A DNA stretch of 64,000 nt, from IMG/VR virus record IMGVR_UViG_3300015608_001800; one strand, 5' to 3'. The position numbers and the translations under genes were made by a program. Positions 8,039 to 47,465 of this stretch are shown in pieces. Origin of the DNA: an uncultured virus (IMG/VR IMGVR_UViG_3300015608_001800) (taxonomy: Duplodnaviria > Heunggongvirae > Uroviricota > Caudoviricetes). Within the stretch, counting starts at the first letter, position 1. Each line of letters begins with the position of its first letter. The notes below the pieces were generated by a model that was not told the DNA's origin, made no database searches, and saw only the letters and a list, made by a program, of their open reading frames with translations.

Positions 8039-8091
8039 TTTATTTTGTGTGGAATATATTTATATATACTATGTATCAATATTAATCAATT

Positions 8092-8715
8092 ATGACCAAA
8101 GAAGAAAGAAAAGAATATAATAAAAAATATAGAGAGAAAAATAAAGATTTAAAAAAACAATCTGATAGGGAGTATTATGAAAAAAATATTAATTCAATTA
8201 GGGAGTATCAGAAAAAATGGAGAGAGAATAATCAACAATACATTAAGGAGTATAAGAAAAAGTGGGGTAAAGAGAATTACTTAAAAAATAAAGAAAAAAG
8301 AAAAGAATATTATAAACTTTGGTATGAAAGAAATAAAGACAATAGTGAATATAAATCTAAAATTCAAAAAACCAATAAAAAATGTCGTTCTAAAAAACCA
8401 CATTTAACAGCATGGAGAAATGTGTTAAAAAATTCTTTAATAAGATTAAAAAATAATAAAATTGATACTACAGTTACTTTATTAAAATATTCCGCTCTTC
8501 AATTAAAACAAAGGGTTGAATGTCAATTTAAAGAAGGTATGTCATGGGAGAATTATGGTGAATGGCATATTGACCATAAAAAACCAATTTCTAGATTTAA
8601 CCCAAAAACACCAATACATATTGTAAATGCATTAAGTAATTTACAACCATTATGGGCTAAAGATAATTTAAGTAAGAAAAATAGTTTCAAAAGTGTATCA
8701 GATAATACTGACTGA
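8092..8715 (+). CDS. HNH homing endonuclease
   Basis: GMSWENYGEWHIDHKKP...NLQPLWAKDNLSK. Confidence 0.88.
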   Translation: MTKEERKEYNKKYREKNKDLKKQSDREYYEKNINSIREYQKKWRENNQQYIKEYKKKWGKENYLKNKEKRKEYYKLWYERNKDNSEYKSKIQKTNKKCRSKKPHLTAWRNVLKNSLIRLKNNKIDTTVTLLKYSALQLKQRVECQFKEGMSWENYGEWHIDHKKPISRFNPKTPIHIVNALSNLQPLWAKDNLSKKNSFKSVSDNTD

Positions 8716-9334
8716 AAATAGAAAAAAGGTCAAAGTTCTCCACGAATATAGTAGAGAATACGATGTTAATTATAGGTTTGAAAAACTAAAATCTCAAGAG
8801 GCATTCTTCCCTAAAACTAAAGTCTATAAGGATAAAAAACTTGTAGATGTTAATTACGAAATTCTTTTACTAAAAAAGAGAGAGGAGGGTGATCAAAATC
8901 GTATTGTTAAGAATGAATTAGGTAAATTCGTAGAGGAAACCATTAACGACCCTGATTGGGTTATTATGGATGTTGGTCCTTATCTCATTGAAGAGAATTT
9001 CAGTGTAAGTGGTGCTAACCGTAAATTAACAGCTAAAGAAATAATCGAATACATTGTAACATCTAAAGCTCAAAAGAAAAACCCAAAACAAATCTTAATG
9101 TTAAACAACAAGATAGTAATTGAGGGTTTAGAATTATATTTGGTGACTTGTAAAGATGTTGAAGAAACTATACGACTTTATAATAAAATAAGAGTGTATT
9201 GTTTTGATAAAGGTATTACTGACATTATATTCTTTGGTTCAATACCGAAAGAAAACCGTAAAACATGGTATAAAAAGATACATGAAAGAACTGGTATTGG
9301 TTATAACCGTCTTTATCGTTCTAATTCAAGGTAG
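8693..9334 (+). CDS. Hypothetical phage protein
   Basis: 213-aa ORF; GTG start overlapping HNH stop. Confidence 0.65.
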   Translation: MYQIILTENRKKVKVLHEYSREYDVNYRFEKLKSQEAFFPKTKVYKDKKLVDVNYEILLLKKREEGDQNRIVKNELGKFVEETINDPDWVIMDVGPYLIEENFSVSGANRKLTAKEIIEYIVTSKAQKKNPKQILMLNNKIVIEGLELYLVTCKDVEETIRLYNKIRVYCFDKGITDIIFFGSIPKENRKTWYKKIHERTGIGYNRLYRSNSR

Positions 9335-9515
9335 TTCCTTTAGCTATCACTCTTAAAATTACCTTATTAAACTGTTCTTTAGTTAGATTAGGTACACCAG
9401 TTTGAACCCAATTATCGGAAGCTATATTTGTTATCTCCCCCATAATTACATCAATATAGGGACTATTCTCTAATTTCTTTCTCATTAAACGTATGTAATC
9501 GATTAAATCGTCCAT
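9321..9515 (-). CDS. Hypothetical protein
   Basis: Coupled ORF in minus-strand operon. Confidence 0.55.
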   Translation of the reverse strand: MDDLIDYIRLMRKKLENSPYIDVIMGEITNIASDNWVQTGVPNLTKEQFNKVILRVIAKGTTLN

Positions 9516-9943
9516 TTGTCTAGGTTTGGTTTAATAAAACTAACATCAGTTTCTATTAAATAAACTTTATCACCATCTTCGATGATACCGTCTACATGGT
9601 TAAATATCTTCTCTAATATTCTAACTTTTTTACGAATTTCACGAACCTCTGAACGTTGACTCTTTGGTAGACTTAATAATAGTTTCCTAGATAAAATACT
9701 AAAAAAGACGACCCAATTTAAATGTAATGAATAATGATAAGCCCAAGGCTTATTAGAATCTTTTATTTTATCTTTAACCTCGTAAATGTTATTTAAAAGA
9801 ACCACTTCTTTATTGTAATCATAGAATTCTTCTACGTAATCCAATAAATCTTCTTTGGAGAGATGTTTTTCTCTTTTATATTCAGAAAATTTCTTATCTG
9901 AAAGTTCTATCACTCTATCTAATATTTCTTTGTCTAACTCCAT
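9503..9943 (-). CDS. Hypothetical protein
   Basis: 146-aa ORF in operon. Confidence 0.6.
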   Translation of the reverse strand: MELDKEILDRVIELSDKKFSEYKREKHLSKEDLLDYVEEFYDYNKEVVLLNNIYEVKDKIKDSNKPWAYHYSLHLNWVVFFSILSRKLLLSLPKSQRSEVREIRKKVRILEKIFNHVDGIIEDGDKVYLIETDVSFIKPNLDKWTI

Positions 9944-9967
9944 AGAAGAATATTAAGAAAAATAAAA

Positions 9968-10558
9968 TTAAGATTGAAGGATATTCTTTAGAAATGATTT
10001 ACGGTGCCACTTGGTAGTTCCGATTTCTTTTATCTTCTCTATGTGTTCAGCCGAACCATAACCTTTATTACCGTCCCATTTATAATCAGGATATGTTAAA
10101 TGAAGTTCTTTCATGAAATCATCCCTCATTACTTTAGCTACTATAGAAGCTGCAGCAATAGAATAATAGGTGTTATCACCCTTTATTACACAATCGTGTT
10201 TTATGTCTTTATAAGGAAGAAAATAGTTACCATCGACTAGAATGTGATTAAACTCACCATCTAGATTAGATAAACACTCATGCATACCCTTCATTGTTGC
10301 CTGAAGGATGTTTAAATCGTCTACTTCTTGTGGTGAGGTGAAAGTAACAGTCCATTTAATTGCCTTCTCCTTAATTAATTCAAAAGCTTCTTTTCTTTTT
10401 TTCTCGGACAGTTTTTTAGAATCTTTTACTATTGGTGATTCAAAGTCTTTAGGTAATATAACAGCGGCAGTAACAACAGGTCCAGCTAAACAACCACGAC
10501 CTACTTCATCTAATGCCGCAATCGGATTTTTCGATATTTCGATATCACTTTTTAACAT
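9968..10558 (-). CDS. rnhB: Ribonuclease HII
   Basis: DEVGRGCLAGPV, DSKKL, KGD..YYSIAAASIVAKV.RD, NKGYG; likely start MLKSD at 10558. Confidence 0.93.
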   Translation of the reverse strand: MLKSDIEISKNPIAALDEVGRGCLAGPVVTAAVILPKDFESPIVKDSKKLSEKKRKEAFELIKEKAIKWTVTFTSPQEVDDLNILQATMKGMHECLSNLDGEFNHILVDGNYFLPYKDIKHDCVIKGDNTYYSIAAASIVAKVMRDDFMKELHLTYPDYKWDGNKGYGSAEHIEKIKEIGTTKWHRKSFLKNILQS

Positions 10559-11240
10559 ATTCCCATTTATATCCATAAGCTGTTCTACCTTTACCATTAC
10601 AAACTCTAGTAATGGTTGATCTATCATATTTTAATTCATTTTCAATTTGGGAAAGTGATTCCCATTTTTTTACAAAATCACCATTTAAGGTTTTTTGTAT
10701 GACTTCTCTACGTTTTTTTTGAAGTAATCTAAATTTATCTTTAACTTCTTTTGTTGAATATTTTTCTTTTAAAGTTTTAGAAATTTTATCCCTAACCTCT
10801 TTATCTTTAGTTGGATGATTAGTTGAATTTCTTAGTGATAAATCAGGTCTTTTCTTCCCCTTCATAGGGTTGATAAAACCGTTTCTATAACTCTCTTTTT
10901 TAATTAAAGATAACTTATGTTTAATATACTCATTCATATTCGAAGCGTCACCACCATCAGTGGTATTGGTTAGATTAAAACCTAAGTCTTTAAAATATTT
11001 TATCCAAAATATTTCTCTATCCAATGCCTCAACTTCCGTATCTACCGATTCCAACTCTTCAATTATTGGTTTTATATTTTCCTTCAATAAAGATTTAATC
11101 CAATTAGATTTATGTGTAAATTCAACACCCCTATTAGATTTACTTATATGACCATTTAATCTAGTTTTTAAACTATTTTTAGTTATACCAACATACTTAA
11201 TAATGTTTTTATTATCTTTCAATACATATATTTTATACAT
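10545..11240 (-). CDS. GIY-YIG homing endonuclease with NUMOD1
   Basis: IYVLKD...YVGIT...RL..H, LTN.T.GGD, TAYGYKWEY. Confidence 0.88.
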   Translation of the reverse strand: MYKIYVLKDNKNIIKYVGITKNSLKTRLNGHISKSNRGVEFTHKSNWIKSLLKENIKPIIEELESVDTEVEALDREIFWIKYFKDLGFNLTNTTDGGDASNMNEYIKHKLSLIKKESYRNGFINPMKGKKRPDLSLRNSTNHPTKDKEVRDKISKTLKEKYSTKEVKDKFRLLQKKRREVIQKTLNGDFVKKWESLSQIENELKYDRSTITRVCNGKGRTAYGYKWEYVKK

Positions 11241-11279
11241 AATTAATTTTATATATAAATATAATTCACCACCCCAAAG

Positions 11280-11332
11280 TTCATCTAATTGATTTCGATA
11301 TTATCTTCATTTAGGTAAGGTTTTAAACTCAT
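11280..11332 (-). pseudogene. Relic original N-terminus of RNase HII (MSLKPYLNEDNIEI-LDE)
   Basis: ATGA-coupled to upstream gene; ends at catalytic DE with one frameshift. Confidence 0.65.
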
Positions 11333-11586
11333 TTTTTTAAAAATTTAAAGGTGATACCATACAACTCTAATTCAAACTCATCACTATATTGGTCTGTTAG
11401 AGGCATGTTTTTTTGTACTAATATTTCTTTCTGAATGGACTCGTGATTGTGTTTGTCCAATGTATAGGTAATAGAAGTTGGGATTGGGAAGTTGTTTTTC
11501 TTAACCTCTTCCATTTCTTTTAATGAGTATGCGAACTCAATAAACTCCTTTAGTTTTGTATTATTACGTAATATTATCTTACTCAT
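11329..11586 (-). CDS. Hypothetical protein
   Basis: Coupled ORF. Confidence 0.6.
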   Translation of the reverse strand: MSKIILRNNTKLKEFIEFAYSLKEMEEVKKNNFPIPTSITYTLDKHNHESIQKEILVQKNMPLTDQYSDEFELELYGITFKFLKK

Positions 11587-11771
11587 TTTGAAAACATTCT
11601 TTTAAATTTACCCCAAAATCCTAATTTCTTTTGTACTTTATTGGGTTCTTTTAGTATTTCTTCCCCCAAACCGTCGACAATTTCACGGATGAAGTTTTCT
11701 TTCTTGATTTCGGTCGCAACGGTGTCTTGTAACATTTTACGTTCTTCATCCTTAATTAAATTCCTACTCAT
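11583..11771 (-). CDS. Hypothetical protein
   Basis: Coupled ORF. Confidence 0.55.
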   Translation of the reverse strand: MSRNLIKDEERKMLQDTVATEIKKENFIREIVDGLGEEILKEPNKVQKKLGFWGKFKRMFSK

Positions 11772-12214: not shown

Positions 12215-12261
12215 ACCTATATAAATATCAATAAAAACCCCCTAGCTGGGGGTCTTAAAAA

Positions 12262-12618: not shown

Positions 12619-12666
12619 AATGACAATTAAATTTAAAATATTTATATTTGTAACAATACTAATAAT

Positions 12667-13203
12667 ATGACAAAAAGAAAGATTTCCGTTTTTGATTTTG
12701 ATGGTACTCTTTTGGATACCCCAATCGGATCACCAGAAAATAAAGAAACATGGGCAAAAAAATACGGTAAACCATGGCCATATCTTGGTTGGTGGGGTAG
12801 GGATGAATCCTTAGATACAACTGTTTGGGATATGAAACCTATCGATGAGGTTTATAAAGCTTGGGTTAAAGAGTCAGAAAATCCTGAGACTGTAACTGTA
12901 TTACTAACAGGTCGTTTAATTAAACAAAGTCATTTGGTTAAAGGTATTACAGACTCAATTGGGTACCGTTTTGACCATTATTTGTTCAACACTAAGGGTG
13001 GAACATTACAAAATAAGATTAACCATCTAAACCATTTATTATCACAATATCCTGATGTTCGTGAAGTTGAATTATGGGATGATCGCATAGAGCATGCTGA
13101 TAGTTTTAAAAAATGGGGTGAGACGTTAAAAGAAAATAAACGTATAGATAAATTTTATCTTAACGAAATAAAATCTGATCAGTGGGAAAATTTTATTGAA
13201 TGA
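12667..13203 (+). CDS. HAD-family phosphatase (Swiss-Army-Knife RNA-repair-like)
   Basis: FDFDGTL, LLTGR, WDDR motifs. Confidence 0.75.
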   Translation: MTKRKISVFDFDGTLLDTPIGSPENKETWAKKYGKPWPYLGWWGRDESLDTTVWDMKPIDEVYKAWVKESENPETVTVLLTGRLIKQSHLVKGITDSIGYRFDHYLFNTKGGTLQNKINHLNHLLSQYPDVREVELWDDRIEHADSFKKWGETLKENKRIDKFYLNEIKSDQWENFIE

Positions 13204-13297
13204 GGTCTTTTTTAACCCATCTGTTTATATAACTACATAGTGGTCTGAGGTTTGTGTAGTGGTTTAATTTTAATACATCCTCTTCATTTTTGGCTGA
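13193..13297 (-). pseudogene. HNH endonuclease C-terminal relic
   Basis: Translates SAKNEEDVLKLNHYTNLRPLCSYINRWVKKD. Confidence 0.7.
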
Positions 13298-13316
13298 ACG
13301 TATGTTGGAATTGGGT

Positions 13317-13379
13317 CGAATAGATTCTTTCTATCTCAACAAGATTAAATCTGACCAATGGGATAAGTTTGTAGAATAA
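13317..13379 (+). pseudogene. Relic original C-terminus of HAD gene
   Basis: RIDSFYLNKIKSDQWDKFVE* versus current RIDKFYLNEIKSDQWENFIE*. Confidence 0.85.
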
Positions 13380-31971: not shown

Positions 31972-32721
31972 ATGGAATATAAAATTTGTACTTACTGTAA
32001 TATAGAAAAAGGTAGTAATTTATTTGATAGAAGTAAAAGGTCTATCGATGGATATGGTAAAATATGTAAAGAATGTCGAAAAATTATAAAAGAAAAATCA
32101 AAAAATAATAAAAATAAAACTATTGATATAGTTAAGAAAAAATGTAAAAAATGTAACACAATAAAAAATATTTGTGAGTTTGGTGTTAAAAACACTATGA
32201 GTGATGGTTATAGAAATGAGTGTAATGAATGTAGAAAAAAAGAAGAAAAAAAAAGGTACACTAATATTTCTAAAGATAAAGTTTTGATGACTAAACGTAA
32301 AGAGGCTTCAAAATTATATATGAGAAAAAGAAGAAATATATTATCTAACGATTTAGAATATAAAGAAGAAAGAAAAGTAAAAGATAAAATTTATTACGAT
32401 AAAATAAAAAGTAATCCTGAATATAAACTTAAAAAATCTTGGCGAGAAATTTTAAGAAGATATTTCAAAAGAAATGGTTTAATTAAGAAAAATAAAACAT
32501 ATAATGAATTAGGTTACACACCTAAACAACTTAAAGATAGGATTGAGTGTCAATTTAAAGAAGGTATGTCATGGGATAACTACGGTCAATGGCATATAGA
32601 TCATAAAAAACCTTTATCCCTATTCCACCCTAATACCTCACCAAAAATTGTTAATTCATTATGTAATTTACAACCTTTATGGAAGATAGATAACCTAAGA
32701 AAGGGTAAAAAGTTGCTTTAG
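31972..32721 (+). CDS. HNH homing endonuclease with Zn ribbons
   Basis: CxxC repeats; GMSWDNYGQWHIDHKKP...NLQPLW..DN. Confidence 0.88.
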   Translation: MEYKICTYCNIEKGSNLFDRSKRSIDGYGKICKECRKIIKEKSKNNKNKTIDIVKKKCKKCNTIKNICEFGVKNTMSDGYRNECNECRKKEEKKRYTNISKDKVLMTKRKEASKLYMRKRRNILSNDLEYKEERKVKDKIYYDKIKSNPEYKLKKSWREILRRYFKRNGLIKKNKTYNELGYTPKQLKDRIECQFKEGMSWDNYGQWHIDHKKPLSLFHPNTSPKIVNSLCNLQPLWKIDNLRKGKKLL

Positions 32722-32758
32722 GTGGTATTGTTACTTTTTGTTTTTCTTTAGTTGCCAT
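32714..32758 (-). pseudogene. Relic original N-terminus of SbcC
   Basis: MATKEKQKVTIPPKA versus current MSQKIKIPPKA; TAATG-coupled to upstream gene. Confidence 0.8.
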
Positions 32759-33276
32759 TACTCTCCGTATAAATCTTTATCTTTCTTTTCTTGTGGAACC
32801 CATTTAATCACATCCTTAGGTTTATCACCAAAGGGGTTTGATGTGTCTATTCTAGGTTTATTACGATTCTTTTCAATCTCTAATAAATCCTCTAATCTTT
32901 GTATTTTTTGGTACAACTTACCAAGTTCACTTCCTGAAGTTTTTTCTTTCTCTAATTTAAGTTCTCTCTCTAGTGTTTCTAGTTTTACTAATAATTCTTT
33001 AACTTGTGAATCGTCAGTAATAACTTTTTCAACAATCTTTTCGACAGGAACTTCTACCACTTTTTCTACAATTTTCTCAACAGGAACCTCAATCACCTTC
33101 TCAACAATCTTTTCAATTTCCTTTTCAATCACTTGAGGCATGATTGGTGATGTACCATATTTTTCGACATTAAAACCTTGTTTAACCATATTAATTATAA
33201 ATTGGTCTACGTTGGTTATACTGTTCATTCTACAATAATCCCATATTTCATTTTGTATATCCTTTGGTAATTCCAT
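32758..33276 (-). CDS. Hypothetical protein with VEKIVEKV(I/V)EVP repeats
   Basis: Tandem peptide repeats. Confidence 0.65.
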   Translation of the reverse strand: MELPKDIQNEIWDYCRMNSITNVDQFIINMVKQGFNVEKYGTSPIMPQVIEKEIEKIVEKVIEVPVEKIVEKVVEVPVEKIVEKVITDDSQVKELLVKLETLERELKLEKEKTSGSELGKLYQKIQRLEDLLEIEKNRNKPRIDTSNPFGDKPKDVIKWVPQEKKDKDLYGE

Positions 33277-33443
33277 TACACTAACCTTTCTGATTCTGTT
33301 TCTATATCCTCAATTGATTTTATTTTAAAAGTGTAAAAACCGTAGTCACTTTCAATCTTTTTCAATTCATGTTTTCTTGTTGGGATATCCCAAATAACGT
33401 AACCATGATTGTGAGGGTCTTCACCGAAGTCTTGTTGAATCAT
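33276..33443 (-). pseudogene. Relic/duplicate C-terminus of SbcD
   Basis: MIQQDFGEDPHNHGYVIWD...DYGFYTFKIKSIEDIE, paralogous to 33588-33815. Confidence 0.85.
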
Positions 33444-33461
33444 TAATCTTCTAACATTAAG

Positions 33462-33602
33462 ATGTCCTGTCGCAAAGTAAAAATTAATGATGAATTTAAA
33501 AATAAATTGGCTTTAGATAACGGTTTTAATATAAAAAGATTTTGGGGTTCTGAGATAAAAGATGCTGGATTTGAGGATGTTTTAATTTTACATGTTAAAT
33601 AA
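33462..33602 (+). pseudogene. Vsr/DUF559-like endonuclease C-terminal relic
   Basis: NDEFKNKLALDNGFNIKRFWGSEI. Confidence 0.6.
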
Positions 33603-33815
33603 AATTTCACTATCATTTTCAATATCTTCGATAGATTTTATTTTAAAAGTATAAAAACCATAATCTGATGGTAAATCTATTTGTTTATGGGTTAAAGTTT
33701 CAATATCCCATAACACATAACCGTGACCTGTGACTGATTCCCCAAAATCTTGGGCTATCATACTACCTGGCATTACAATTGGTGTTTTACGACAAATTTT
33801 AATTTTTTTACTCAT
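33588..33815 (-). CDS. sbcD: SbcD/Mre11 C-terminal fragment
   Basis: PIVMPGSMIAQDFGE...HGYVLWD, the segment following GDIH in SbcD. Confidence 0.75.
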   Translation of the reverse strand: MSKKIKICRKTPIVMPGSMIAQDFGESVTGHGYVLWDIETLTHKQIDLPSDYGFYTFKIKSIEDIENDSEILFNM

Positions 33816-33842
33816 TTTATATTTTATTTAATAATAACATAA

Positions 33843-34076
33843 TTAATTAATGAATTCAAACTCTTCTTCTCTTAACCTTAATTGTCTTCCTTCATCAGTT
33901 TCTACCCATTTAAAACCAGAACCAGAATCAAAATAATAATAAGCTAAAACACCTTTCAAATTATCATAATCGGTTATAATTTTAATACGTTTTTTCATTT
34001 TATATTGTGGTCTGTAATTCACTGAAACAACTTCCCAACCATTAGGTGTTATATCCCCTTCTTTATAATCTTTCAT
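33843..34076 (-). CDS. Hypothetical protein
   Basis: ORF between SbcD halves; start uncertain (34076 or 34145). Confidence 0.5.
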   Translation of the reverse strand: MKDYKEGDITPNGWEVVSVNYRPQYKMKKRIKIITDYDNLKGVLAYYYFDSGSGFKWVETDEGRQLRLREEEFEFIN

Positions 34077-34096
34077 ATTAACTATTCTTAATTTAT

Positions 34097-34654
34097 TTAA
34101 TAAATTGATAATCCATGTGGTTTTTCTAGTTCTTTTTCTTCCCATTCATTGTCTTCATTCACAATCCAACGTTTAATTGGAATTCCGTTCTCATATAAAA
34201 TTTTACCAGAAATACGAGTATTAAATGGATTATGCATCATAACTTCTCCGTTAAGGTCAGTAGGAATTTCTTTTGTACCAGTTTTTCTATTATGTCTAAA
34301 AGCTTCACCAGTAAATGGATTATATAAAACCATTTCATCTGGCAAATTAAATGGGTCACGAAGCTTCCCATTATCCCACATATAGTGTAATCTTAAATCT
34401 TCTGGTAAATCATTAAATGATAGACTATTGAAATCTACAGAGTTTTCATTAACTCTAACAACTCCTTGTTTAACTTCAACATTAATATCGCTACCGTAAA
34501 CTCTAATTGGTATCGTATCTACCCATTCTAGAATTTTCTTACTTTGTTCTTCATCGAAACCTAAGTCTTTAATTTCTTTTTTAAGGTCTCTAATTTTTGG
34601 TTCTTGTTTATTTAAGGGGTTTAAAAACTCTTTCATATTTTCTTTCTTTTTCAT
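34097..34654 (-). CDS. Hypothetical protein
   Basis: ORF after TATCTTTG (34659-34666). Confidence 0.6.
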   Translation of the reverse strand: MKKKENMKEFLNPLNKQEPKIRDLKKEIKDLGFDEEQSKKILEWVDTIPIRVYGSDINVEVKQGVVRVNENSVDFNSLSFNDLPEDLRLHYMWDNGKLRDPFNLPDEMVLYNPFTGEAFRHNRKTGTKEIPTDLNGEVMMHNPFNTRISGKILYENGIPIKRWIVNEDNEWEEKELEKPHGLSIY

Positions 34655-34734
34655 AATGCAAAGATACATAAAAAAAGCCGAACAGTCAAGTTCAGCTTTA
34701 TTATATAAATATCACCAAACAAGACAAAATAAGA

Positions 34735-35412
34735 TTAATCACAAAGAACCCAACCGTTATGTAAATAATGACTTAACATAGATTCATCAATTTCTCTTTC
34801 TTGTGTTAAATAAGTACAACTATATTTGTGGATATCGCCACACATAACCAAATCACAACCTTCAAATATGGATATATCTTTACCATCTTCAAACTCAAAT
34901 CCAACAGCTGTTTTAAGACCAATCAAAGGATCATGATACAAACCAATATAAGATACTTCTTCACCGTATAATTCTCTTGCCTCTTCTATATTAGGTCTCT
35001 CAGAACCTTCCATATGTCCGTATACACACCAAACCACATTTTCATCTTTATATGTTCCTGTGTGTTTTAAAAACATTATATTAGGATTATCCATAGTAGA
35101 AATGATGGGTGTTAAAGCATCCATTCTATCCAAATTGTTAGCCAAGAAATCGTGATTACCCAACGTAATAATAGTCTTTGCTATCTTAGAACATTTGTTT
35201 AAAAAAGTAGTAACCATATAGATAAGTTCGGGTGTCATTTGATTCTTAGAATGACAAACGTCTCCACATATAACTATTCTATCAGGTTTCAATTCCTCAC
35301 ATTCTTTGTAAAACTTCTCAAACTGTTCTGTATATTCTTCATGTCTTTTAAAAAGACGTAAGTGTATATCAGCAAGATGAGCCACAACTTTGATTTTTTT
35401 ATTTTCAGACAT
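34735..35412 (-). CDS. sbcD: SbcD/Mre11 metallophosphoesterase, N-terminal fragment
   Basis: HLADIH, GDVCH, GNHD, YH, GDIHK motifs. Confidence 0.88.
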   Translation of the reverse strand: MSENKKIKVVAHLADIHLRLFKRHEEYTEQFEKFYKECEELKPDRIVICGDVCHSKNQMTPELIYMVTTFLNKCSKIAKTIITLGNHDFLANNLDRMDALTPIISTMDNPNIMFLKHTGTYKDENVVWCVYGHMEGSERPNIEEARELYGEEVSYIGLYHDPLIGLKTAVGFEFEDGKDISIFEGCDLVMCGDIHKYSCTYLTQEREIDESMLSHYLHNGWVLCD

Positions 35413-35451: not shown

Positions 35452-36282
35452 ATGAAATGGTCAAAAGACAAAATCGATATTATTAAAGATAACTATCCTA
35501 AATTTGGTAGTAAATACTGTTCTGAATTATTAGGTGTGAGTATTAGTTCCATCCAAAATATGGCCTATAAATTAAACTTATCTATTAACAAAAATGTTAA
35601 ATCTAATATTTTAAGTAAATCTAAAAATTCTACAAATATAGATTTTGATAATTTCATTCAATTAAATAAGCCAGAAATTGTTTATTTTTTGGGTCTATTT
35701 TGGGCTGATGGGTATATGTTTCAATCAAAAAATGGTTATAACAGTAACATAGGTATAGGATTAGTTAAAGAAGATATGGAAGAGTTAGAAATTCATCTAG
35801 ATAAAATAGGTGTGTGGAATAAAAGAATTAGTGATAAGAAAAATGTTTCATCATGGCGTCAAACAAAATCTTTATTAACCAACAATAAAAGAATATATAA
35901 CTTCTTAACGGAAATGGATTTTAAAGAAAAATCTTATAAGTCAGCCGATAAAATATTAAATATAATACCTAAAGAACTAAGACATTATTTTTTTAGAGGG
36001 TTAATAGATGGTGATGGTTGTTTTTATATTAGTAAAAATAAAAAACAAAAACAATTTACGATATCTAGTTCTATTGGGCAGGATTGGGAATATGTAATAA
36101 AATTATTTAATAATTTAAATATCTTAAAATATAGTATTAATAAAAATACTGGATCAAACATTAGAGTTGTGAATAAAATTGATATTATAAAATTAGGTGA
36201 TTATATCTATCAAAATTATGAAAAAGATAAAATAGGACTATCAAGAAAATATGAAAAATATCTAATGATTAAAAATGGTTAA
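35452..36282 (+). CDS. LAGLIDADG homing endonuclease
   Basis: YFLGLFWADG and FFRGLIDGDG. Confidence 0.9.
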   Translation: MKWSKDKIDIIKDNYPKFGSKYCSELLGVSISSIQNMAYKLNLSINKNVKSNILSKSKNSTNIDFDNFIQLNKPEIVYFLGLFWADGYMFQSKNGYNSNIGIGLVKEDMEELEIHLDKIGVWNKRISDKKNVSSWRQTKSLLTNNKRIYNFLTEMDFKEKSYKSADKILNIIPKELRHYFFRGLIDGDGCFYISKNKKQKQFTISSSIGQDWEYVIKLFNNLNILKYSINKNTGSNIRVVNKIDIIKLGDYIYQNYEKDKIGLSRKYEKYLMIKNG

Positions 36283-36283
36283 A

Positions 36284-36307
36284 AATATGTACTACTTTAT
36301 TAATCAT
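36284..36307 (-). pseudogene. Relic original N-terminus of SbcD (MINKVVHI)
   Basis: ATGA-coupled to upstream gene; compare current KIKVVAHLADIH. Confidence 0.55.
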
Positions 36308-39103: not shown

Positions 39104-39389
39104 TTTTTATGAATTTATGTTTTGTTATTCTTTTTTTAATATTAAACTCAGGGTATAAAATTTCCTGAATTTCAGGCCTTTGTACCCATCTTGGCCAAAA
39201 ATCTTCATCTGTTAGTGTGACATCATACCTCAAATTAATAGTCCCACAAGTTTCACATATATGGTTTTTACAATCATGTTTAAACATCTTTATTCTGAAA
39301 ATTTTGTAGTAAATAAATTCTACAACCTTTCCGAGGTATCCAACGTTTTCACCACATTTTTGACAACAATATGAAGGATGCTTTCTCAT
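39096..39389 (-). CDS. Small Zn-finger protein
   Basis: CQKCG, HDC, CETCG. Confidence 0.55.
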   Translation of the reverse strand: MRKHPSYCCQKCGENVGYLGKVVEFIYYKIFRIKMFKHDCKNHICETCGTINLRYDVTLTDEDFWPRWVQRPEIQEILYPEFNIKKRITKHKFIKNG

Positions 39390-39505
39390 TATCTTACCAT
39401 ATCAACATTACCAGACTCAATTCTCTCTAACGTGTAGATTTCTAAGTCGTTTCTTAATCTACCTTCATTCTTTAATGTCTCATAACGATTTTGAGCCTTA
39501 TTCTT
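39389..39505 (-). pseudogene. Relic original C-terminus of the 40260-41408 gene
   Basis: KNKAQNRYETLKNEGRLRNDLEIYTLERIESGNVDMVR* versus KNKANQRFLTLKRENRLKTELEIYTLDTINNKNIDMIR*. Confidence 0.88.
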
Positions 39506-39550: not shown

Positions 39551-40267
39551 ATGAGAAAAGGTAATACGACTTCTTTTATAGAAAAATCTAAAAAAATACA
39601 CGGTAATAAATATGATTACTCTAAAGTTAACTACTTAAGTTATTACGAAAAAGTAGATATTATTTGCTATAAACACGGGTTGTTTAAACAAAGAGTCTGT
39701 GATCACATCAAAGGCCAAAATTGTCCTGAATGTAGTAAATTAGAAATGATTAATAAATTATCACATAATAATGAAATTTTTATAAATAAAGCTAAAAAAA
39801 TACATGGTGATAACTATGATTACACATTGGTTGATTATAAAAATGCTTATACACATGTACTAATAAAATGTAAATTACATGGTGAATTCAAACAAAAACC
39901 CTCAAACCATTTAAACAACAAACAGGGTTGCCCATATTGTAACACACCTAAAATGGAAAAATTTGTCGAGTATTTTTTAAAAACAAATAATATACCTTAT
40001 ATACAACAAAAAACATTCAATGGTTGTAAATATAAAAGAAAATTAAAATTCGATTTTTACTTACCAAATCACAATACTTGTATTGAATGTGACGGTGAAC
40101 AGCATTATAGAATTAGAGATTTTAATGGTGGTTTAGAAGGTTTTAAGTATACACAAATACGTGATGATATTAAAAATAATTATTGTTTAACACATGATAT
40201 TAAATTAATTAGAATTAAATACAATGAAAATATAGTGGATAGACTAAAACCTATTTTAACTACCTAA
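39551..40267 (+). CDS. Vsr/DUF559-like PD-(D/E)xK homing endonuclease with Zn-ribbon repeats
   Basis: HG.KYDYS.V.Y repeats, FDFYLP...IECDGEQHY...D..KN.YC...LIRI.Y. Confidence 0.85.
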   Translation: MRKGNTTSFIEKSKKIHGNKYDYSKVNYLSYYEKVDIICYKHGLFKQRVCDHIKGQNCPECSKLEMINKLSHNNEIFINKAKKIHGDNYDYTLVDYKNAYTHVLIKCKLHGEFKQKPSNHLNNKQGCPYCNTPKMEKFVEYFLKTNNIPYIQQKTFNGCKYKRKLKFDFYLPNHNTCIECDGEQHYRIRDFNGGLEGFKYTQIRDDIKNNYCLTHDIKLIRIKYNENIVDRLKPILTT

Positions 40268-41408
40268 TCATATCTATATTTTTATTATTTATCGTATCTA
40301 AGGTATAAATTTCTAATTCAGTCTTTAACCTATTTTCACGTTTTAATGTTAAAAATCTTTGATTTGCCTTATTCTTCCACCAATCAATCATATGAGTTAA
40401 ATGGTATCTATCCCAATTATCTCTCTTAACTAAAGGAACTTTACCATCACTAGCAATATATTGTGGTACGTTATCATAACCGTAGTTACAATAATAGTAT
40501 CTCTTTTTAGTTTTAGCCTTCATATGGGTCTTAGTGAATTCACTAAATTCTTTAAACTTCAAAGGGTTTTGTACCTTTAAATGGTTTTTAAGGATAGAAA
40601 CCATTTTATTGAATTCTCTCATTTTAGGACCAGAAGGACCTGGGTCTACCATAGAGCCACCCCATTCAGGTTTACCATAATGTGGTCTTAAGGCATCTCT
40701 AACAGCCATAAAAACATCATCATTAGGGAATAAGAATAAATCAGATTCAGTCATACTACCATATCTCATAAACGGTTTAAGACCGTCATATTGACTCACA
40801 CCTTTAATATCACCATAAAGTGAGGTTGTCTCCATAAAGACAGTATCAATACGGTCACCGTATTTATCTTTTAACATTTGACGTGCCTCATGTGAACAAC
40901 ATATTAAAGCTAACAATTTACCACCCAAGTAGTTATACCCAAATGGTTGAACGGGAACGATAATCGCTCCATTAATCATGTATTTATTAACTTCGTTTGC
41001 TGTAATTTTTAAACCTTGGAATAGGTCGTTACGGGGTTTAATTGATAAAACGGGTGAAGCTAGACGAATAAAACCAACATATTTGTTAGTTGTTGTTTCT
41101 TTAACCCCAATCATAATTTGTCTACCAATTTGGGATTCTAAGGGTAGGGATGTAATAATTTGTGTTGCTGGATTGAATAATTTACCCTCAATAATTTCAA
41201 TCTCAAACTTCATATCCTTTGGTTCAACACCATAGTCATCGAACATTAGTTTAGTGTATTTATCGTGGTCAACACCCACTACTTTTTCTTTCTTTCTTTC
41301 AAGGAAATAATCCTGAATTGTGTCTAATCCTTCATAAAAACCCATCAACCTATTTGTTAAATCAAGGGTTTCTTCGGGTGTTAATTTTGTATCGAAAACT
41401 TCTGCCAT
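40260..41408 (-). CDS. DUF4338/DruA-like protein (second paralogue)
   Basis: IVPVQPFGYNYLGGKLLALICCSH, ETTSLYG, SQYDGLKP; start MAEVF. Confidence 0.7.
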   Translation of the reverse strand: MAEVFDTKLTPEETLDLTNRLMGFYEGLDTIQDYFLERKKEKVVGVDHDKYTKLMFDDYGVEPKDMKFEIEIIEGKLFNPATQIITSLPLESQIGRQIMIGVKETTTNKYVGFIRLASPVLSIKPRNDLFQGLKITANEVNKYMINGAIIVPVQPFGYNYLGGKLLALICCSHEARQMLKDKYGDRIDTVFMETTSLYGDIKGVSQYDGLKPFMRYGSMTESDLFLFPNDDVFMAVRDALRPHYGKPEWGGSMVDPGPSGPKMREFNKMVSILKNHLKVQNPLKFKEFSEFTKTHMKAKTKKRYYYCNYGYDNVPQYIASDGKVPLVKRDNWDRYHLTHMIDWWKNKANQRFLTLKRENRLKTELEIYTLDTINNKNIDMIR

Positions 41409-41409: not shown

Positions 41410-41440
41410 TTTGCCAATTTAAATATTATTATTATCTTTG
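41410..41440 (+). promoter_or_regulatory. Bacteroidetes primary-sigma promoter
   Basis: TTTG-N19-TATCTTTG. Confidence 0.7.
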
Positions 41441-41470
41441 TAATGTTAATCAAAAAAGGTCAATCAGTAA

Positions 41471-42336: not shown

Positions 42337-42339
42337 ATT

Positions 42340-42689
42340 CTATTTTATATCTATTTTTTATTTTAAATTTACTCATTTTTAATTTTTCGATAGCTTCAGA
42401 CCAACAATCATATTTTTTATTATCTATGATTATGGTTTTAGAAAAAGGGTTATTACCACATTTCGCTGAACCATTTTTTTTCTAACCTCACCTAGTTCTT
42501 TTTGTTTCCTAGTTCTTTCAACTCTTTCTTTACAATTGTAAAAGAACGCTATCAGAATAATAAAAAATTAAAATTTTATCGTCCAGGTATTGTGTGACTG
42601 TTAACATAACTTACCGTAGAATAGTCATACTTATCACCATGTATATCTTTTGATTTTAATATAAAAGAATCTGTTGTAAGTTTTTTCAT
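42340..42689 (-). pseudogene. Decayed homing endonuclease
   Basis: MKKLTTDSFILKSKDIHGDKYDYSTVSY...* (42576-42689) homologous to N-terminus of 39551 gene; downstream NUMOD-like scraps. Confidence 0.7.
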
Positions 42690-42702
42690 ATATGCATAAA
42701 TA

Positions 42703-43736: not shown

Positions 43737-43938
43737 ATAAATTTGTTTCTTTTATTAATCTATCCAATATTTTAGGTTCTTCTGTTTCTTTAATAATATC
43801 ACAAACTTTAGATGAAAAATCATCTTCAGTTATAAGAGCATCGGGTTTTTTAATTAACTTAATTAAAGATTCTAAACCATCTTCTCTAACTACATCTCTT
43901 ATTATTTTTTCATTAATATATCTTTTATTGAATCCCAT
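43723..43938 (-). CDS. Hypothetical protein (MGFNKRYI)
   Basis: Coupled ORF. Confidence 0.6.
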   Translation of the reverse strand: MGFNKRYINEKIIRDVVREDGLESLIKLIKKPDALITEDDFSSKVCDIIKETEEPKILDRLIKETNLYGNG

Positions 43939-43993
43939 TATATCGAACTTTCTTTTTCATAATTTTAGATATTTATAATAAAATAGTAAAATT

Positions 43994-44188
43994 ATGTCAA
44001 AAAAGAAAGCTGATATGTCACAAGATGAGATATTAAAAAAAAGTCTTAGTGATAAAAAATATCGTGAAACTAATAGAGAAAAAATAAATACTAAAATGAA
44101 AATGTGGTATAAAATTAATAAAGAAAAAATAAAAGAAAAACCCCTTTGTAGTTACACCAATAGATATGTTAAAAAGAATAAGTTTTAA
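43994..44188 (+). pseudogene. Internally deleted HNH endonuclease
   Basis: Basic N-terminus fused directly to terminal PLCSYTNRYVKK, cf. relic at 13193-13297. Confidence 0.65.
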
Positions 44189-45159
44189 ATAGAACTTTCT
44201 TTTAATTTAAAACTAGATTTTAATACATCTACAACACCTTCACGTCCGAAATCCTCGTTAACTTTTGAAATGTCATATCCGTCTTTCATCTTTATTATTT
44301 TTACTTTACCGTATAATCTACCAACATTTAATTGTGTATAGATTTGTTTAGCCCTAGTCCACGCATCGTCATCTAATAACACAACAACCCAACTATTGGC
44401 GTTCTTCATAATTAAATCATATAACTTTGGATGTAAATCCTTACCTAACATTGGGATTGAATTATAAACAACAATGTGGTCAAAAGGACCTTCAACTATA
44501 TAAACAGTCGAGTCCCAATTAATAAGTTGTTCGTTGAAAATAACTTGTTCTCTAGGTAAGTCAGGGTTTTTATATTTTGGTTTCTTTCGTGATAACCACG
44601 TTCTACCTGTGAAGTAGTTTAATTTACCCTCTTTATCGTATGAAGGTACTATAATTCTATAACCGTACTCACCAGAAGTGGTAAACCCCATTTTAAACTT
44701 ATAGATAATATCGGGTGTTAAATTTCTCTCTTTGGTAAGGTAATTCCAAGCCTCTTTATATTGAATACTGTTGGGGTTGGAATCTTTAAAGGATTGATAC
44801 TCTTCAGGTAATTGTATCTCCCTAACTTCTTGAATTACTTTCTTCCCTGTTTTAATTTCTTCTAAAACAATACCTAATTGTTTCAGTTTTTTACGATGTT
44901 CTTTTCTACCAAACTTTGTGATTAATTTACCGATAGAACCGTGGGTTTGGTGAGTACCGCCACAAGCCCAACAATGGTAAACACCTTTATTTAGGTTAAC
45001 CTCAAAGTTACCTTTACCATCACCCTCTGGTGTGTCATTTTCAACCGAACAAACGGGACAATCAAACGCAAATTGAGACTTTGTACGGTTCTCCTTTCTT
45101 GGATTCCCTAAAATTTCAATTATAATATCTAAGAGTAAATTAGATTCAATTTGTCCCAT
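44185..45159 (-). CDS. dnaG: DNA primase (Zn finger + TOPRIM)
   Basis: CPVC...HCWAC, KYKNP, VEGPFD, LDDDA. Confidence 0.88.
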   Translation of the reverse strand: MGQIESNLLLDIIIEILGNPRKENRTKSQFAFDCPVCSVENDTPEGDGKGNFEVNLNKGVYHCWACGGTHQTHGSIGKLITKFGRKEHRKKLKQLGIVLEEIKTGKKVIQEVREIQLPEEYQSFKDSNPNSIQYKEAWNYLTKERNLTPDIIYKFKMGFTTSGEYGYRIIVPSYDKEGKLNYFTGRTWLSRKKPKYKNPDLPREQVIFNEQLINWDSTVYIVEGPFDHIVVYNSIPMLGKDLHPKLYDLIMKNANSWVVVLLDDDAWTRAKQIYTQLNVGRLYGKVKIIKMKDGYDISKVNEDFGREGVVDVLKSSFKLKESSI

Positions 45160-45218
45160 AGAGAAAATATAAGAAAAAGATATTAGTTAGTAAATTACTT
45201 GGTTATTCAATATATTTA

Positions 45219-45959
45219 TTGTATATGGAATACAAGAAAATAATTAAGAATATGTTGATGGAGGATAACGATTTTTATAGTTATTACCAAGAAGGGTATA
45301 ATACTTATACTTATAGTCCTTATACTAAACTTCGTTCTAAACATCTAACCAATCCCAAGTATATGGAGATTGCTGAAAAAAATGTTACAAGTGGTAAGAA
45401 TTTAGTGATTCACCCTGATGATAGAACTACAGATTTTCTTGACCCTTCTTACGCTGACCTTGACGCAAGAGTTATGACAACTCAAAAAGAAATGTTTAAT
45501 CTTAGAGAAAACATGAGACAATATGATAGAATTATCATGATGGGTCACGGTTCACCAATGGGTTTAATGATGCCTAAAATTACTTTAAATGGTGTTGATT
45601 TAATCGACGGTGAATTACACAAATATAGTCTACACAGTCTTAACAGTAGTTTTGTTGACATTCTAAAAACAAAACCTATTGTCGCTGTTTGGTGTAATGC
45701 TGACCAATTTGTTCTTAAACATGATTTACATGGTTTCTATACAGGAATGGTAATCTCTGAAATGTGTGAGGCTAACTACTGTAATGTTCACAAATGTAAC
45801 ACGAAGGATTTGGAAGAATCGAATAGATTATTTACTGAGGCTTTAAGAGCGGCAATAAAAATTCAATCACCAGAAGCGGTTAAAGTATTTAAAGAAATTT
45901 ACAATAATCCTAAGAATGAAATTATGAATTATAATAGACAAAGAATCTATTATAGATAA
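45219..45959 (+). CDS. Hypothetical protein
   Basis: ORF after ATATTTAT; GHG...WC motif pair. Confidence 0.6.
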   Translation: MYMEYKKIIKNMLMEDNDFYSYYQEGYNTYTYSPYTKLRSKHLTNPKYMEIAEKNVTSGKNLVIHPDDRTTDFLDPSYADLDARVMTTQKEMFNLRENMRQYDRIIMMGHGSPMGLMMPKITLNGVDLIDGELHKYSLHSLNSSFVDILKTKPIVAVWCNADQFVLKHDLHGFYTGMVISEMCEANYCNVHKCNTKDLEESNRLFTEALRAAIKIQSPEAVKVFKEIYNNPKNEIMNYNRQRIYYR

Positions 45960-45987
45960 AAAAAAAGGGACTTAAGTCCCTTTTTTT
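45958..45987. terminator. Bidirectional intrinsic terminator
   Basis: A-run GGGACT/AGTCCC T-run between convergent genes. Confidence 0.75.
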
Positions 45988-46627
45988 ATTTCCAATAACC
46001 TTCTTTTCTCATAAACCCTAGAACAGCTGTATAAGCGTCGGTCATATCAAAATTTTCCTTTTTAAGAAGATTGTGTTTGTTATATTCCCAAACAATTTGT
46101 GGTTCACGGTCTGCAACTAAATCCCAAATGATTTGTTTCTTATCAACATCCCAAGGGTGTCCACCAAATAAAACAGGTTTCTTCTTACTTAATTCTTTTT
46201 CGTTGTAAGGTACACCTTTTTTATCGTGAGTTCTGATTGCCATTAATTGTGGGAAAGCATAAGCACGAGAATCATATGAAGATATGAATTCTGGTGTTAC
46301 ACCTAAAACCTCACTAACGATTTTTGAAATCATCCCGTTGAATTTAAGAAGTGTTCCAACGGTATAAACATTATTACTATTGAGTAGTGGTTCTTCAATT
46401 ACAACTTTCTCAATATCGAGTTCGATGTATCTTGTTAAAAGCTTCTCAAATGCATCAACTTTCTTAAAAAGTTCTTCCAATTTGTTCTCAGGTAATGGTT
46501 TAATTTTTGGTGTAATATGTGTTAATTCCAATAATTTACCATCTTCTTCAAACAGTGCCATACCAATCGTTTTGGTACTCACATCAAGTCCCATAATACG
46601 GCTTTTTATTTTTTCTTCTTTTTCCAT
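45986..46627 (-). CDS. RuvC-like Holliday junction resolvase
   Basis: GLDVSTKTIG, VIEEP, DMTDA. Confidence 0.75.
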   Translation of the reverse strand: MEKEEKIKSRIMGLDVSTKTIGMALFEEDGKLLELTHITPKIKPLPENKLEELFKKVDAFEKLLTRYIELDIEKVVIEEPLLNSNNVYTVGTLLKFNGMISKIVSEVLGVTPEFISSYDSRAYAFPQLMAIRTHDKKGVPYNEKELSKKKPVLFGGHPWDVDKKQIIWDLVADREPQIVWEYNKHNLLKKENFDMTDAYTAVLGFMRKEGYWK

Positions 46628-47400
46628 ACGTAACCTCTCAAAGGTGTATTATTTTTAATTGCTTTATTTAGTGTATTATAAGAAACATCTAAAAATTCTG
46701 TAGCTTTTTTAATTGACTCCCACTCCTTTATTAAAACACTGTTTTGATATTGGAGTACCTTTTTTTGTAAAGATTTTGATCTTTTTTCAATAGATTCTTT
46801 AGAAAAAACTTGTAGTTTCCTTTTTTCTCTAATTTTTTTCTTAGATTCATCACTATGTTTTTTGCCGGTTATCCAAGTTTTTTGGCCTTTATGTGATTTA
46901 CTCAGTTTTAATTTATATTCATCACTAAAAGTCTTACCTTTATTGGGTGATGTTCTACCTTTTAATGATTTAGATAAATTTTTTCTATGTTTTTCCGTTC
47001 TCTTTTTATCATTATTTAACCACGGTATTGGTTTACCTTTCTTTGATTCTGACATTTTTCTCTTACTTTCTTCTCTATGTTTACTACCTTTAGTGGAAGG
47101 GGGTTGGTCACCACCATTTGTACAGTTGGTTAAATTACATCCAATAAATTTAAAATAAGAAATATAATAGGATTCCCAAAATTGCCATTCTTTTTCTAAA
47201 ACTTCATCAATAATAATTAGTTCTGGTCTAACATTATTTTCTTTTAACTTTCTTATCCACCTATCTTTATATGAATCATATAGATTTCTATCGGCAATAT
47301 GTCTACGTAATCTCGATTTTGGGTTTAAACTTTTACCTATATACCGTACTTGGCTAGTGATTGGATCAATTAAGCCGTAGATATAAACATTTCTTTCCAT
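46606..47400 (-). CDS. GIY-YIG homing endonuclease with NUMOD3 repeats
   Basis: YIYGLIDP...RYIGKS..P..RL..H, LTN.T.GG. Confidence 0.9.
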   Translation of the reverse strand: MERNVYIYGLIDPITSQVRYIGKSLNPKSRLRRHIADRNLYDSYKDRWIRKLKENNVRPELIIIDEVLEKEWQFWESYYISYFKFIGCNLTNCTNGGDQPPSTKGSKHREESKRKMSESKKGKPIPWLNNDKKRTEKHRKNLSKSLKGRTSPNKGKTFSDEYKLKLSKSHKGQKTWITGKKHSDESKKKIREKRKLQVFSKESIEKRSKSLQKKVLQYQNSVLIKEWESIKKATEFLDVSYNTLNKAIKNNTPLRGYVWKKKKK

Positions 47401-47429
47401 AATGATAAATATCTATCATTACGTGAAAA

Positions 47430-47465
47430 TTATTTGGTAGACACATCTAAGCCTAAAATTCTCAT
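47430..47465 (-). pseudogene. Relic original N-terminus of RuvC-like gene
   Basis: MRILGLDVSTK* versus current RIMGLDVSTK. Confidence 0.88.

Follow-up and report, generated by a model that had tools for sequence, protein, structure and literature searches.

The stretch analysed here, called the window in what follows, comprises 64,000 nucleotides of an uncultured phage of the Caudoviricetes (IMG/VR record IMGVR_UViG_3300015608_001800), and at nine sites along it a full-length hybrid gene was found near a stranded piece of its own terminus, in most cases with an endonuclease gene, or what looks like a remnant of one, in between. The stranded fragment is referred to as the relic, the end carried by the hybrid gene as the replacement end or end in use, and the latter together with the endonuclease gene or remnant as the cassette. 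The window is phage-like, with a base composition of 31% G+C and genes almost all on the minus strand; it is identical to a 72,336-bp virus record (G001), and the sequencing runs containing it are wastewater, activated-sludge and bioreactor metagenomes from nine studies. A scan with the DruA-like protein gave ten related loci. G002 (73 kb) is the closest cassette-free relative and covers six of the relic sites, and G004, G005 and G006, at ~70-76% DNA identity to the window, were used for the RNase HII, HAD and 8071-8079 sites. Since G005 measures 317,983 bp at 96% completeness, the window belongs to a jumbo phage lineage; the part of the phage genome under study is 64 kb, against 318 kb in this near-complete relative. 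A blastn search of INPHARED with positions 36300-42400 as query gave only scattered matches to the Vsr-like endonuclease gene described below, in unrelated phages.

Positions 16407-60089 are colinear with G002 at 95-98% identity, and five of the breaks in this alignment correspond exactly to cassettes (31957-32713, 35374-36285, 39506-40296, 43957-44184 and 46586-47432), with a sixth cassette, at the 3' end of sbcD, appearing as an overlapping double match. At each of them, a short stretch of G002 aligns twice, to the relic and to the end in use. In the SbcC gene (29598-31961), identity to G002 stops at the junction with a replacement N-terminus (31916..31961, minus strand). Divergent from it lies a free-standing gene for a His-Me/HNH-type endonuclease (31972..32721, plus strand; PHROG 1035, E 3.1e-19), which is absent from G002 to G006 at the SbcC site, followed by the native SbcC start as a relic (32714..32758, minus strand), identical to G002 at 44/45 nucleotides (nt) and overlapping gene 32758-33276 by TAATG. 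The same gene shares a TAATG overlap with the native C-terminus of SbcD, a relic of 55-57 codons (33276..33447, minus strand) that matches G002 at 164/172 nt and 54/55 amino acids (aa). Beyond a spacer with no endonuclease gene left (33448..33587) comes the C-terminal piece of SbcD in use (33588..33815, minus strand), of which 33588-33765 is a foreign replacement with 66% nt identity to the replaced part in G002. An open reading frame (ORF) at 33462-33599 was considered as a Vsr-like tail and dropped, having no Pfam match and no homolog among the related loci. At the other end of SbcD, the N-terminal piece (34735-35412) has identity to G002 that ends at 35373 and a replacement N-terminus from there (35374..35412, minus strand); a LAGLIDADG endonuclease gene follows (35452..36282, plus strand; PF14528, 33 bits with a cut-off of 22.5), and then the native SbcD start as a relic (36287..36307, minus strand; 21/21 nt identical to G002) with an ATGA overlap to gene 36304-36612.

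The DruA-like gene 40260-41408 has a replacement C-terminus (40260..40365, minus strand) with 64% nt and 22/38 aa identity to its relic, and closest to the distant relative L008 (25/38 aa). The endonuclease gene at this site (39551..40267, plus strand) is convergent with the DruA-like gene and overlaps its end; it encodes zinc fingers, matched by Pfam domains, and a Vsr-like endonuclease (PHROG 559, E 1.4e-59; PHROG 9084, 'homing endonuclease'). The relic (39389..39505, minus strand) holds the native C-terminus of 38 codons and a TAATG overlap with gene 39096-39389. It is identical at 117/117 nt and 38/38 aa to G002/L002, where the same sequence ends an intact gene and the homolog of 39096-39389 follows immediately. 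The inserted unit measures 871 bp, has 11-bp repeats at its flanks and is lacking in G002. In the primase gene (44185-45159), only the last 3 codons are respelled. Convergent with it lies an ORF of 64 aa (43994..44188, plus strand), absent from G002 and without a family match in Pfam or PHROG, which looks like an internally deleted endonuclease remnant, with weak similarity to the N-terminus of the endonuclease encoded at 8092-8715; the relic beyond it (43938..43955, minus strand) is the native primase end of 5 codons and the stop, 18/18 nt identical to G002 and with a TAATG overlap to gene 43723-43938. At the RuvC-like gene (45986-46627), identity to G002 ends at 46585, and the replacement N-terminus (46586..46627, minus strand) is overlapped by the end of a GIY-YIG/NUMOD3 endonuclease gene (46606..47400, minus strand; NUMOD3 E 1.3e-17, GIY-YIG 19.5 bits, below the cut-off of 22.6) that G002 lacks. 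The relic (47430..47465, minus strand; 11 codons and a stop) aligns with the RuvC start of G002 with a single change, the one that makes the stop.

The sites from 8071 to 13379 were settled with the help of G004 to G006. The 9 bp at 8071..8079 (plus strand) had been listed as a possible relic next to DnaJ; a DnaJ origin was rejected, as they are the original start, 3 codons long, of the plus-strand gene 8693-9334. Their last 8 bp recur at 8694-8701, so that an 8-bp repeat flanks a 614-bp insertion, and 8 bp of G004 match both of its junctions. The insertion carries a free-standing His-Me/HNH-type endonuclease gene (8092..8715, plus strand; PHROG 1035, 'endonuclease VII', E 1.3e-11; Pfam HNH E 0.0055, below cut-off) that overlaps at its 3' end with the GTG now serving 8693-9334 as start codon, and it is absent from G004, G005 and G006, where only ~30 bp separate DnaJ from the 8693 homolog and no endonuclease gene intervenes. 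RNase HII (9968..10555, minus strand; PF01351, E 6.8e-40) has an N-terminus supplied by the cassette, and its start (ATG at 10555) overlaps the last codons of a GIY-YIG endonuclease gene (10545..11240, minus strand; PF01541, E 3.6e-8) absent from G005 and G006. The native start is stranded as a relic of 15 codons and a stop (11285..11332, minus strand), coupled by ATGA to gene 11329-11586, and 10/14 aa of it agree with the true N-terminus of RNase HII in G006, at the same ATGA-coupled position; there the relic-like start runs directly into GLDEAGRG, just before which the window relic breaks off. G004 has the RNase HII cassette as in the window, with the same replacement start, a decayed relic of its own and a GIY-YIG gene cut to its last 33 codons (82% aa identical to the tail of 10545-11240), and thus shows a later stage in the life cycle of the same cassette. 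Finally, the HAD gene 12667-13203 (plus strand) ends in a replacement C-terminus of 27 codons (13122..13203), followed by a spacer (13204..13289) and by the native C-terminus as a relic (13290..13379, plus strand) with 70-85% aa identity to the HAD C-termini of G004, G005 and G006, in which the homolog of gene 13393 stands directly after the HAD gene. DNA matches to G004 run to 13121 and resume at 13308, which gives a cassette of 186 bp, made up of the 27 replacement codons and the spacer. Within the spacer, 13205-13246 (minus strand) is probably the remnant of an endonuclease tail, a reading with moderate support from 10 of 13-14 aa that match the tail of ORF 43994-44188.

All nine relics that a sequence-only reading of the window had listed are thus present at or near the positions it gave, as judged from translated regions, terminus scoring and relatives. 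The DruA relic lies at 39389-39505, the HAD relic is longer than proposed (from ~13290) and the SbcD C-terminal one extends over 33276-33447. In a chance test, the score of each relic region with its own gene's terminus was compared with its scores for 156-160 termini taken from other genes of the window, and five of the nine exceeded every control: 94 against a control maximum of 38 for the HAD C-terminus, 39 against 32 for the SbcC N-terminus, 154 against 45 for the SbcD C-terminus, 118 against 39 for the DruA C-terminus and 45 against 29 for the RuvC N-terminus. The remaining four (the RNase HII and SbcD N-termini, the primase C-terminus and the DnaJ-side 8071 relic) did not rise above the controls in this test because they are only 3-15 codons long, and these are supported instead by the comparison with G002 and G004-G006. 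When 174 gene termini were compared, without preselection, with the entire window, the three long relics came out among the top matches, the other matches of that level being pairs of endonuclease paralogs only. Five of the affected gene ends are N-termini and four are C-termini. Overlap coupling to the neighbouring gene, said to be kept by most relics, is seen in 6/9, being absent at RuvC and HAD and inapplicable at 8071. The pattern had also been extended to nearly every endonuclease and called genome-wide: a relic accompanies 9/13 endonuclease-related sites and 6/8 intact endonuclease ORFs, and for a view limited to 64 kb the second term is an overstatement.

That the relics are the original ends, as had been proposed, and the ends in use the foreign ones is borne out by the relatives. 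For the five relics measured against G002 (DruA, primase, SbcD N-terminus, SbcC and SbcD C-terminus) the identity is 95-100%, and upon alignment to cassette-free relatives the relic joins the gene body, as the sequence-only reading had predicted, with the neighbouring gene directly after it. The ends in use of SbcC, DruA and SbcD (C-terminus) reach 57-66% nt identity to G002 in like-length comparisons; the primase end in use differs at just 2/18 nt, and the SbcD N-terminal and RuvC replacements differ from G002 in length and align poorly. Starts of the relic type are carried by 6/6 relatives for SbcC, 6/6 for SbcD and 4/4 for RuvC, the ends in use in the window being outliers, and 5/8 DruA homolog loci have 84-100% aa identity to the DruA relic. 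At these sites, none of the endonuclease genes of the window was found in G002 to G006. By this distribution, the relic type is the ancestral state, and the relic-type ends together with the lack of endonuclease genes in relatives indicate that the cassettes are recent gains in the lineage of the window. The replacement ends, in turn, appear to be natural homologs from distant phages.

The junctions share further features. Where base-level data are available (seven sites), the current gene ceases to match no more than 15 bp from the point at which the relic begins (0-15 bp in the alignments to G002). A short repeat stands on both sides of the cassette at four sites (11 bp at the Vsr-like cassette, ~12 at primase, 6 at RuvC and 8 at 8092), and ancestral bases were lost at three others (13-15 bp at SbcC, 11 bp at the SbcD N-terminus and 6 bp at the SbcD C-terminus). 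The endonuclease genes are polarised: convergent or co-directional ones abut or overlap the replacement end and never the relic (DruA, primase, HAD, RNase HII and RuvC), with the new start codons of RNase HII and RuvC falling within the last codons of their GIY-YIG genes, and the divergent ones (SbcC and the SbcD N-terminus) start 10-39 bp from the new gene start. Three breakpoints lie beside motifs that we take to be catalytic, namely GLDVS in RuvC, GLDEAGRG in RNase HII (the break falling just before it) and ADIH in SbcD. Homing endonucleases prefer conserved sequence, and the position of these breakpoints fits such a preference; it also suggests a reason for the use of gene ends, as a short copy carried by the cassette can span a motif only if this lies close to a terminus.

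Four nuclease families had been named by the sequence-only reading. GIY-YIG (PF01541 for 10545-11240, 3237-3863 and 4906-5547) and LAGLIDADG (LAGLIDADG_3 for 35452-36282) pass the Pfam thresholds, and the other two labels remain below them: both 'HNH' genes (8092 and 31972) belong to PHROG 1035, 'endonuclease VII', with Pfam HNH only under the cut-off, and the 'Vsr/DUF559' label of 39551-40267 is based on a sub-threshold DUF559 match (E 0.036) and the PHROG name 'homing endonuclease'. The invasion was also said to be free of splicing, and in agreement with this, Rfam at gathering threshold returned two tRNAs only and no intron in the 64 kb, no Hint or intein domain was found among the Pfam results for the window, and all endonuclease genes are separate ORFs, with 4/6 of the intact ones at relic sites on the opposite strand.

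Filled and empty forms of the sites coexist in nature. Contigs of four runs (X7, X12, X14 and X18), none flagged as a possible source of the window, were aligned on 31000-48500; contig cover is incomplete in X14 and X18, and the uncovered parts were left out of the conclusions. In X7, which belongs to a different study, one 25-kb contig passes through every cassette in 31000-45985 and another through the GIY-YIG cassette at the RuvC site, and X12 has error-free short contigs across both SbcC/HNH junctions. Three junctions, those at RuvC, at primase and beside trx, also occur with 100% identity in a second IMG/VR record (L001, L100). One 10.4-kb contig of X18 shows the empty form at every site it covers. 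In this run, the empty-form contig has exactly the 11 nt lost from the window at the SbcD N-terminal junction, 33444 is joined directly to 33769 at the SbcD C-terminal site and 43944 to 44192, with 12 shared nt, at the primase site, and the LAGLIDADG gene and the Vsr-like and GIY-YIG cassettes are absent. X14 is mixed, the LAGLIDADG cassette being present, as it is in X7, and the Vsr-like and GIY-YIG cassettes absent. The cassettes therefore vary independently of each other in nature.

The reading that we regard as highly probable is that each of these units consists of a homing endonuclease gene, or its remnant, and a foreign copy of a gene end, and that it homes by terminus replacement. The comparisons establish the anatomy, the empty alleles, the identity of the relics to the relative, the foreign origin of the ends in use, the microhomology at the junctions and the natural presence/absence polymorphism; where the nucleases cut, whether they are active, how the cassettes home and what the hybrid genes do are inferred from the sequence. 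The unit lies within the ancestral coding sequence, 3-57 codons from its start or stop, and supplies in frame a terminus with its own start or stop codon, often overlapping the endonuclease gene. The host gene is thereby kept whole as a hybrid, and the native terminus is stranded beside the neighbouring gene with the original overlap coupling kept. Insertion and the replacement by a sequence that differs at ~35-45% of nt would destroy the presumed recognition site in the carrier, and the site would persist in cassette-free relatives; the divergence at the junction suggests that the replacement end is resistant to the element's own nuclease. When a carrier and a cassette-free phage infect together, the nuclease would cut the empty allele close to the relic boundary, and repair from the carrier would copy the cassette in; the gene body would act as one homology arm, and the relic with the neighbouring gene as the other. 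The first capture from a distant phage probably took place by one-sided, microhomology-mediated break repair, which would account for the short repeats and the small losses at the junctions; illegitimate one-sided break repair with such a junction signature has been reported for T4 in the available text of PMC2988022.

Several other explanations were weighed against homing by terminus replacement. The endonucleases might home but cut elsewhere, for example in a neighbouring gene in the manner of the T4 Seg and Mob enzymes, which according to the available text of PMC2988022 cut at a distance from their own genes; the relics would then be incidental by-products of imprecise repair, or of exchange with diverged phages in the same cell, and no immunity unit would exist. 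At the trx-side site both flanking gene ends, which differ from those of G002, were exchanged with no relic left, and in G006 a Vsr-like gene has replaced the DruA start, again with no relic, as such an explanation would have it. Against it, distant cutting followed by variable resection would scatter the breakpoints, whereas the end of identity and the start of the relic fall within 15 bp at 7 sites; moreover, three breakpoints adjoin conserved catalytic motifs and the replacement end and the endonuclease gene physically overlap at 6 sites, and we hold this explanation to be unlikely. Ordinary modular recombination at gene boundaries, with the endonucleases as passengers and their activity irrelevant, could draw on the two relic sites without an endonuclease gene left. 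Yet 6/9 breaks between the window and G002 in 16407-60089 are such cassettes, in four of these six the endonuclease gene is backed by a family match (HNH-type, LAGLIDADG, Vsr-like and GIY-YIG), and a seventh break (42313-42745), though it has no relic, holds decayed endonuclease fragments, while elsewhere the two genomes are 95-98% identical without block exchanges. In the other two of the six cassettes, the 64-aa ORF at the primase site is a remnant by weak similarity only and the SbcD C-terminal site has no supported remnant. On balance, a passenger role is very improbable. As the window is a metagenomic assembly and filled and empty forms both occur in nature, a chimera of co-occurring strains also had to be considered, together with local duplication and later divergence of the copies. 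The second IMG/VR record repeats filled junctions at 100%, and contigs of X7 and X12, from other studies, span them; with empty or mixed forms elsewhere, this speaks against an assembly chimera; a duplication, for its part, cannot leave one copy 100% like the relative and the other 35-45% different between flanks that are 97% identical. Both are scarcely credible.

Homing by terminus replacement has points against it as well. Relics are missing from 4/13 endonuclease-related sites, the HAD and SbcD C-terminal relic sites are without any endonuclease gene now, and at the latter the reading of an endonuclease remnant has no support from Pfam or homologs. The run data are de Bruijn contigs and not long or raw reads. 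In addition, no close donor of a cassette was found in scans of IMG/VR with four endonuclease proteins: the Vsr-like protein gave 102 loci, all with at most 53% aa identity, the GIY-YIG and HNH proteins gave relatives with at most 41% only, apart from the window's own record, and the LAGLIDADG protein gave none. A protein search with the replacement DruA C-terminus alone returned no match, and a PDB sequence search with the Vsr-like protein returned chance-level matches only. A crude flank-repeat test of 71 of 80 Vsr-like loci of other phages (those with both flanks of at least 300 bp), which is blind to relics shorter than ~25 aa, found no clear long terminus duplication. Four loci exceeded the control maximum; L051 and L092 (the latter one of three tied at 87) were examined, together with L027 and L081 from below that maximum, and all held low-complexity or non-coding repeats. 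On this test, the terminus pattern is not shown to be general for the Vsr-like family.

The four relic-free sites comprise two in a tRNA cluster, one beside trx and one within SbcD. In the cluster (3237-5668), which holds tRNA-Arg (TCT), tRNA-Glu (TTC) and a doubtful 'Phe-AAA' called by ARAGORN only, two GIY-YIG/NUMOD3 genes occur (3237-3863 on the plus strand and 4906-5547 on the minus strand), and an orphan tRNA-like 3' half at 4808-4834, beside 4906-5547, may be a tRNA counterpart of the gene-end relics. Between the PD-(D/E)XK gene 42703-43455 and trx lie two decayed endonuclease fragments (42337..42702, minus strand), one a Vsr-like N-terminus and the other a C-terminus resembling, by eye only, a GIY-YIG-type DNA-binding tail; two such fragments at one site, with both adjoining gene ends exchanged and no relic, suggest successive invasions. 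G006 has an intact Vsr-like gene there and a similar C-terminus of the 42703 gene. SbcD is split after GDIHKY by an insertion (33816..34734, minus strand; ORFs 34097-34669 and 33843-34145) between the pieces 34735-35412 and 33588-33815, as the comparison with relatives shows; the gene is contiguous in G003, G005, G006 and L006, and it is interrupted in the window, in G002 and in G004, each time by a different insert. The insert of G002 encodes a TnsA-like nuclease (PF08722, 30.2 bits with a cut-off of 26.5) and a 77-aa ORF, and neither ORF of the window insert has a family match in Pfam or PHROG. The split site is a variable insertion hot spot within the nuclease motif region. A split intein, considered here for a 27-aa tail beginning with Cys, was rejected by eye, since there is no fusion between the upstream ORF and the C-terminal piece and the residues at the boundary are unsuitable.

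Besides the six cassettes, the alignment to G002 has three breaks, namely 34080-34697, 42313-42745 and 57543-57556. The last was rejected as a cassette, since G002 at 37073-37506 holds an extra in-frame domain of 432 bp in a structural gene; this domain of the large structural gene 57058-59769 resembles variation of the tail-fibre type and is not linked to an endonuclease. Two paralogous DruA-like genes (Druantia, PF14236; 37054-38001 and 40260-41408) are kept in all relatives examined. ORF 45219-45959 is separated from the RuvC-like gene by a 28-bp palindrome (45960-45987), which aligns to G002 in either orientation and at which contigs of X7, X14 and X18 stop or start. ORFs 45219-45959 and 41471-42028 are on the plus strand among minus-strand genes and have no family match; the former, present in G002 and G004, went undetected in the interval from primase to RuvC in G003 and G005, and may be a variable insert. 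A 50-bp stretch (38683-38734) between 37991-38647 and 38687-39103 is skipped by contigs of X14 and X18, an indel with no endonuclease gene. The TROVE/Ro-like gene 1078-2796, the HAD_SAK_1 gene 12667-13203 and the ATP-dependent ligase-like gene 27260-27892 look like an RNA-repair set.

Terminus replacement itself is known from other systems, which are compared here as far as described in the available text of the sources cited. In the WHO elements of the yeasts Torulaspora and Lachancea (Coughlan et al. 2020, PMC7282813), the 3' end of FBA1 is replaced, and allele-specific cleavage was shown experimentally. The likeness extends to the pairing of an endonuclease gene with a resistant replacement end (a resistance that is presumed for the phage), to a hybrid gene whose end has a discordant phylogeny, to the lack of splicing and to the old gene end, which is pushed aside as a fragment and serves as a homology arm. 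WHO elements belong to a single intein-like/zinc-finger family related to HO, and are confined to a eukaryotic nuclear genome, to one gene (FBA1) and to its 3' end, where they form tandem clusters; the nucleases described here would work like them but are not members of that protein family, and the phage case, known from sequence alone, involves several unrelated nuclease families and nine gene ends, both N- and C-terminal, with no tandem relic clusters seen at the nine sites. In fungal mitochondria, mORFs were described in Glomus atp6, atp9, cox2 and nad3 and in Allomyces atp6 (Beaudet et al. 2013, PMC3630166, citing Paquin 1994). As in the phage, an inserted C-terminus of foreign origin is separated from the native one by an ORF of the LAGLIDADG or GIY-YIG type; the native copy matches a close relative, and the inserted copy is ~60-65% identical. 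They concern organelle genomes and C-termini only, and the ORF is often in phase with the host gene, whereas the phage has separate nuclease ORFs, often on the opposite strand, and replaced N-termini too. With the intronless homing of T4 (SegF, SegG and MobE; PMC2988022), the window shares free-standing GIY-YIG/HNH genes with a presence/absence pattern among relatives; T4-type homing involves co-conversion of flanking markers and one-sided illegitimate repair at microhomology. The T4-type genes lie between genes, and the available text of that review describes no displaced gene-end relic ('duplicat' occurs 0 times). The split SbcD is similar to the genes in pieces Aeh1 nrdA/mobE and T4 gene 60/mobA (PMC2988022) in that the insertion varies among relatives, but only 33816-34734 splits a gene, and the nine relic sites keep theirs in one piece. 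No phage case of homing by gene-end replacement was found in the full-text literature searched (subscription journals not covered), including the available text of PMC10448857, PMC2988022 and PMC12724721. What is notable here is the scale, the involvement of both gene ends and of several nuclease families, and the clean filled and empty alleles in nature, the mode itself being already known.

These cassettes extend a homing mode of yeast nuclei and fungal mitochondria to phages, and indicate that terminus replacement is bound neither to one nuclease family nor to one gene end. In a wider form, to which we would give an even chance, terminus-replacement cassettes would be a third general route, beside introns and inteins, into conserved phage coding sequence, open to unrelated nuclease families and to either gene end wherever a conserved motif lies near the terminus; they would be homing now in this wastewater jumbo-phage population, at each site independently, and continually rewriting the ends of replication and repair genes, with the relic boundary as the cut site. 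As filled and empty alleles differ by the cassette only, the ancestral target of ~7 nucleases can be read from the empty allele, and specificity and immunity become directly testable. Such replacement also accounts for one way in which gene-end mosaicism, short orphan ORFs and wrongly called starts arise in phage annotation, and selfish nucleases can be a main driver of divergence among phage genomes with 97% identity in the remainder.

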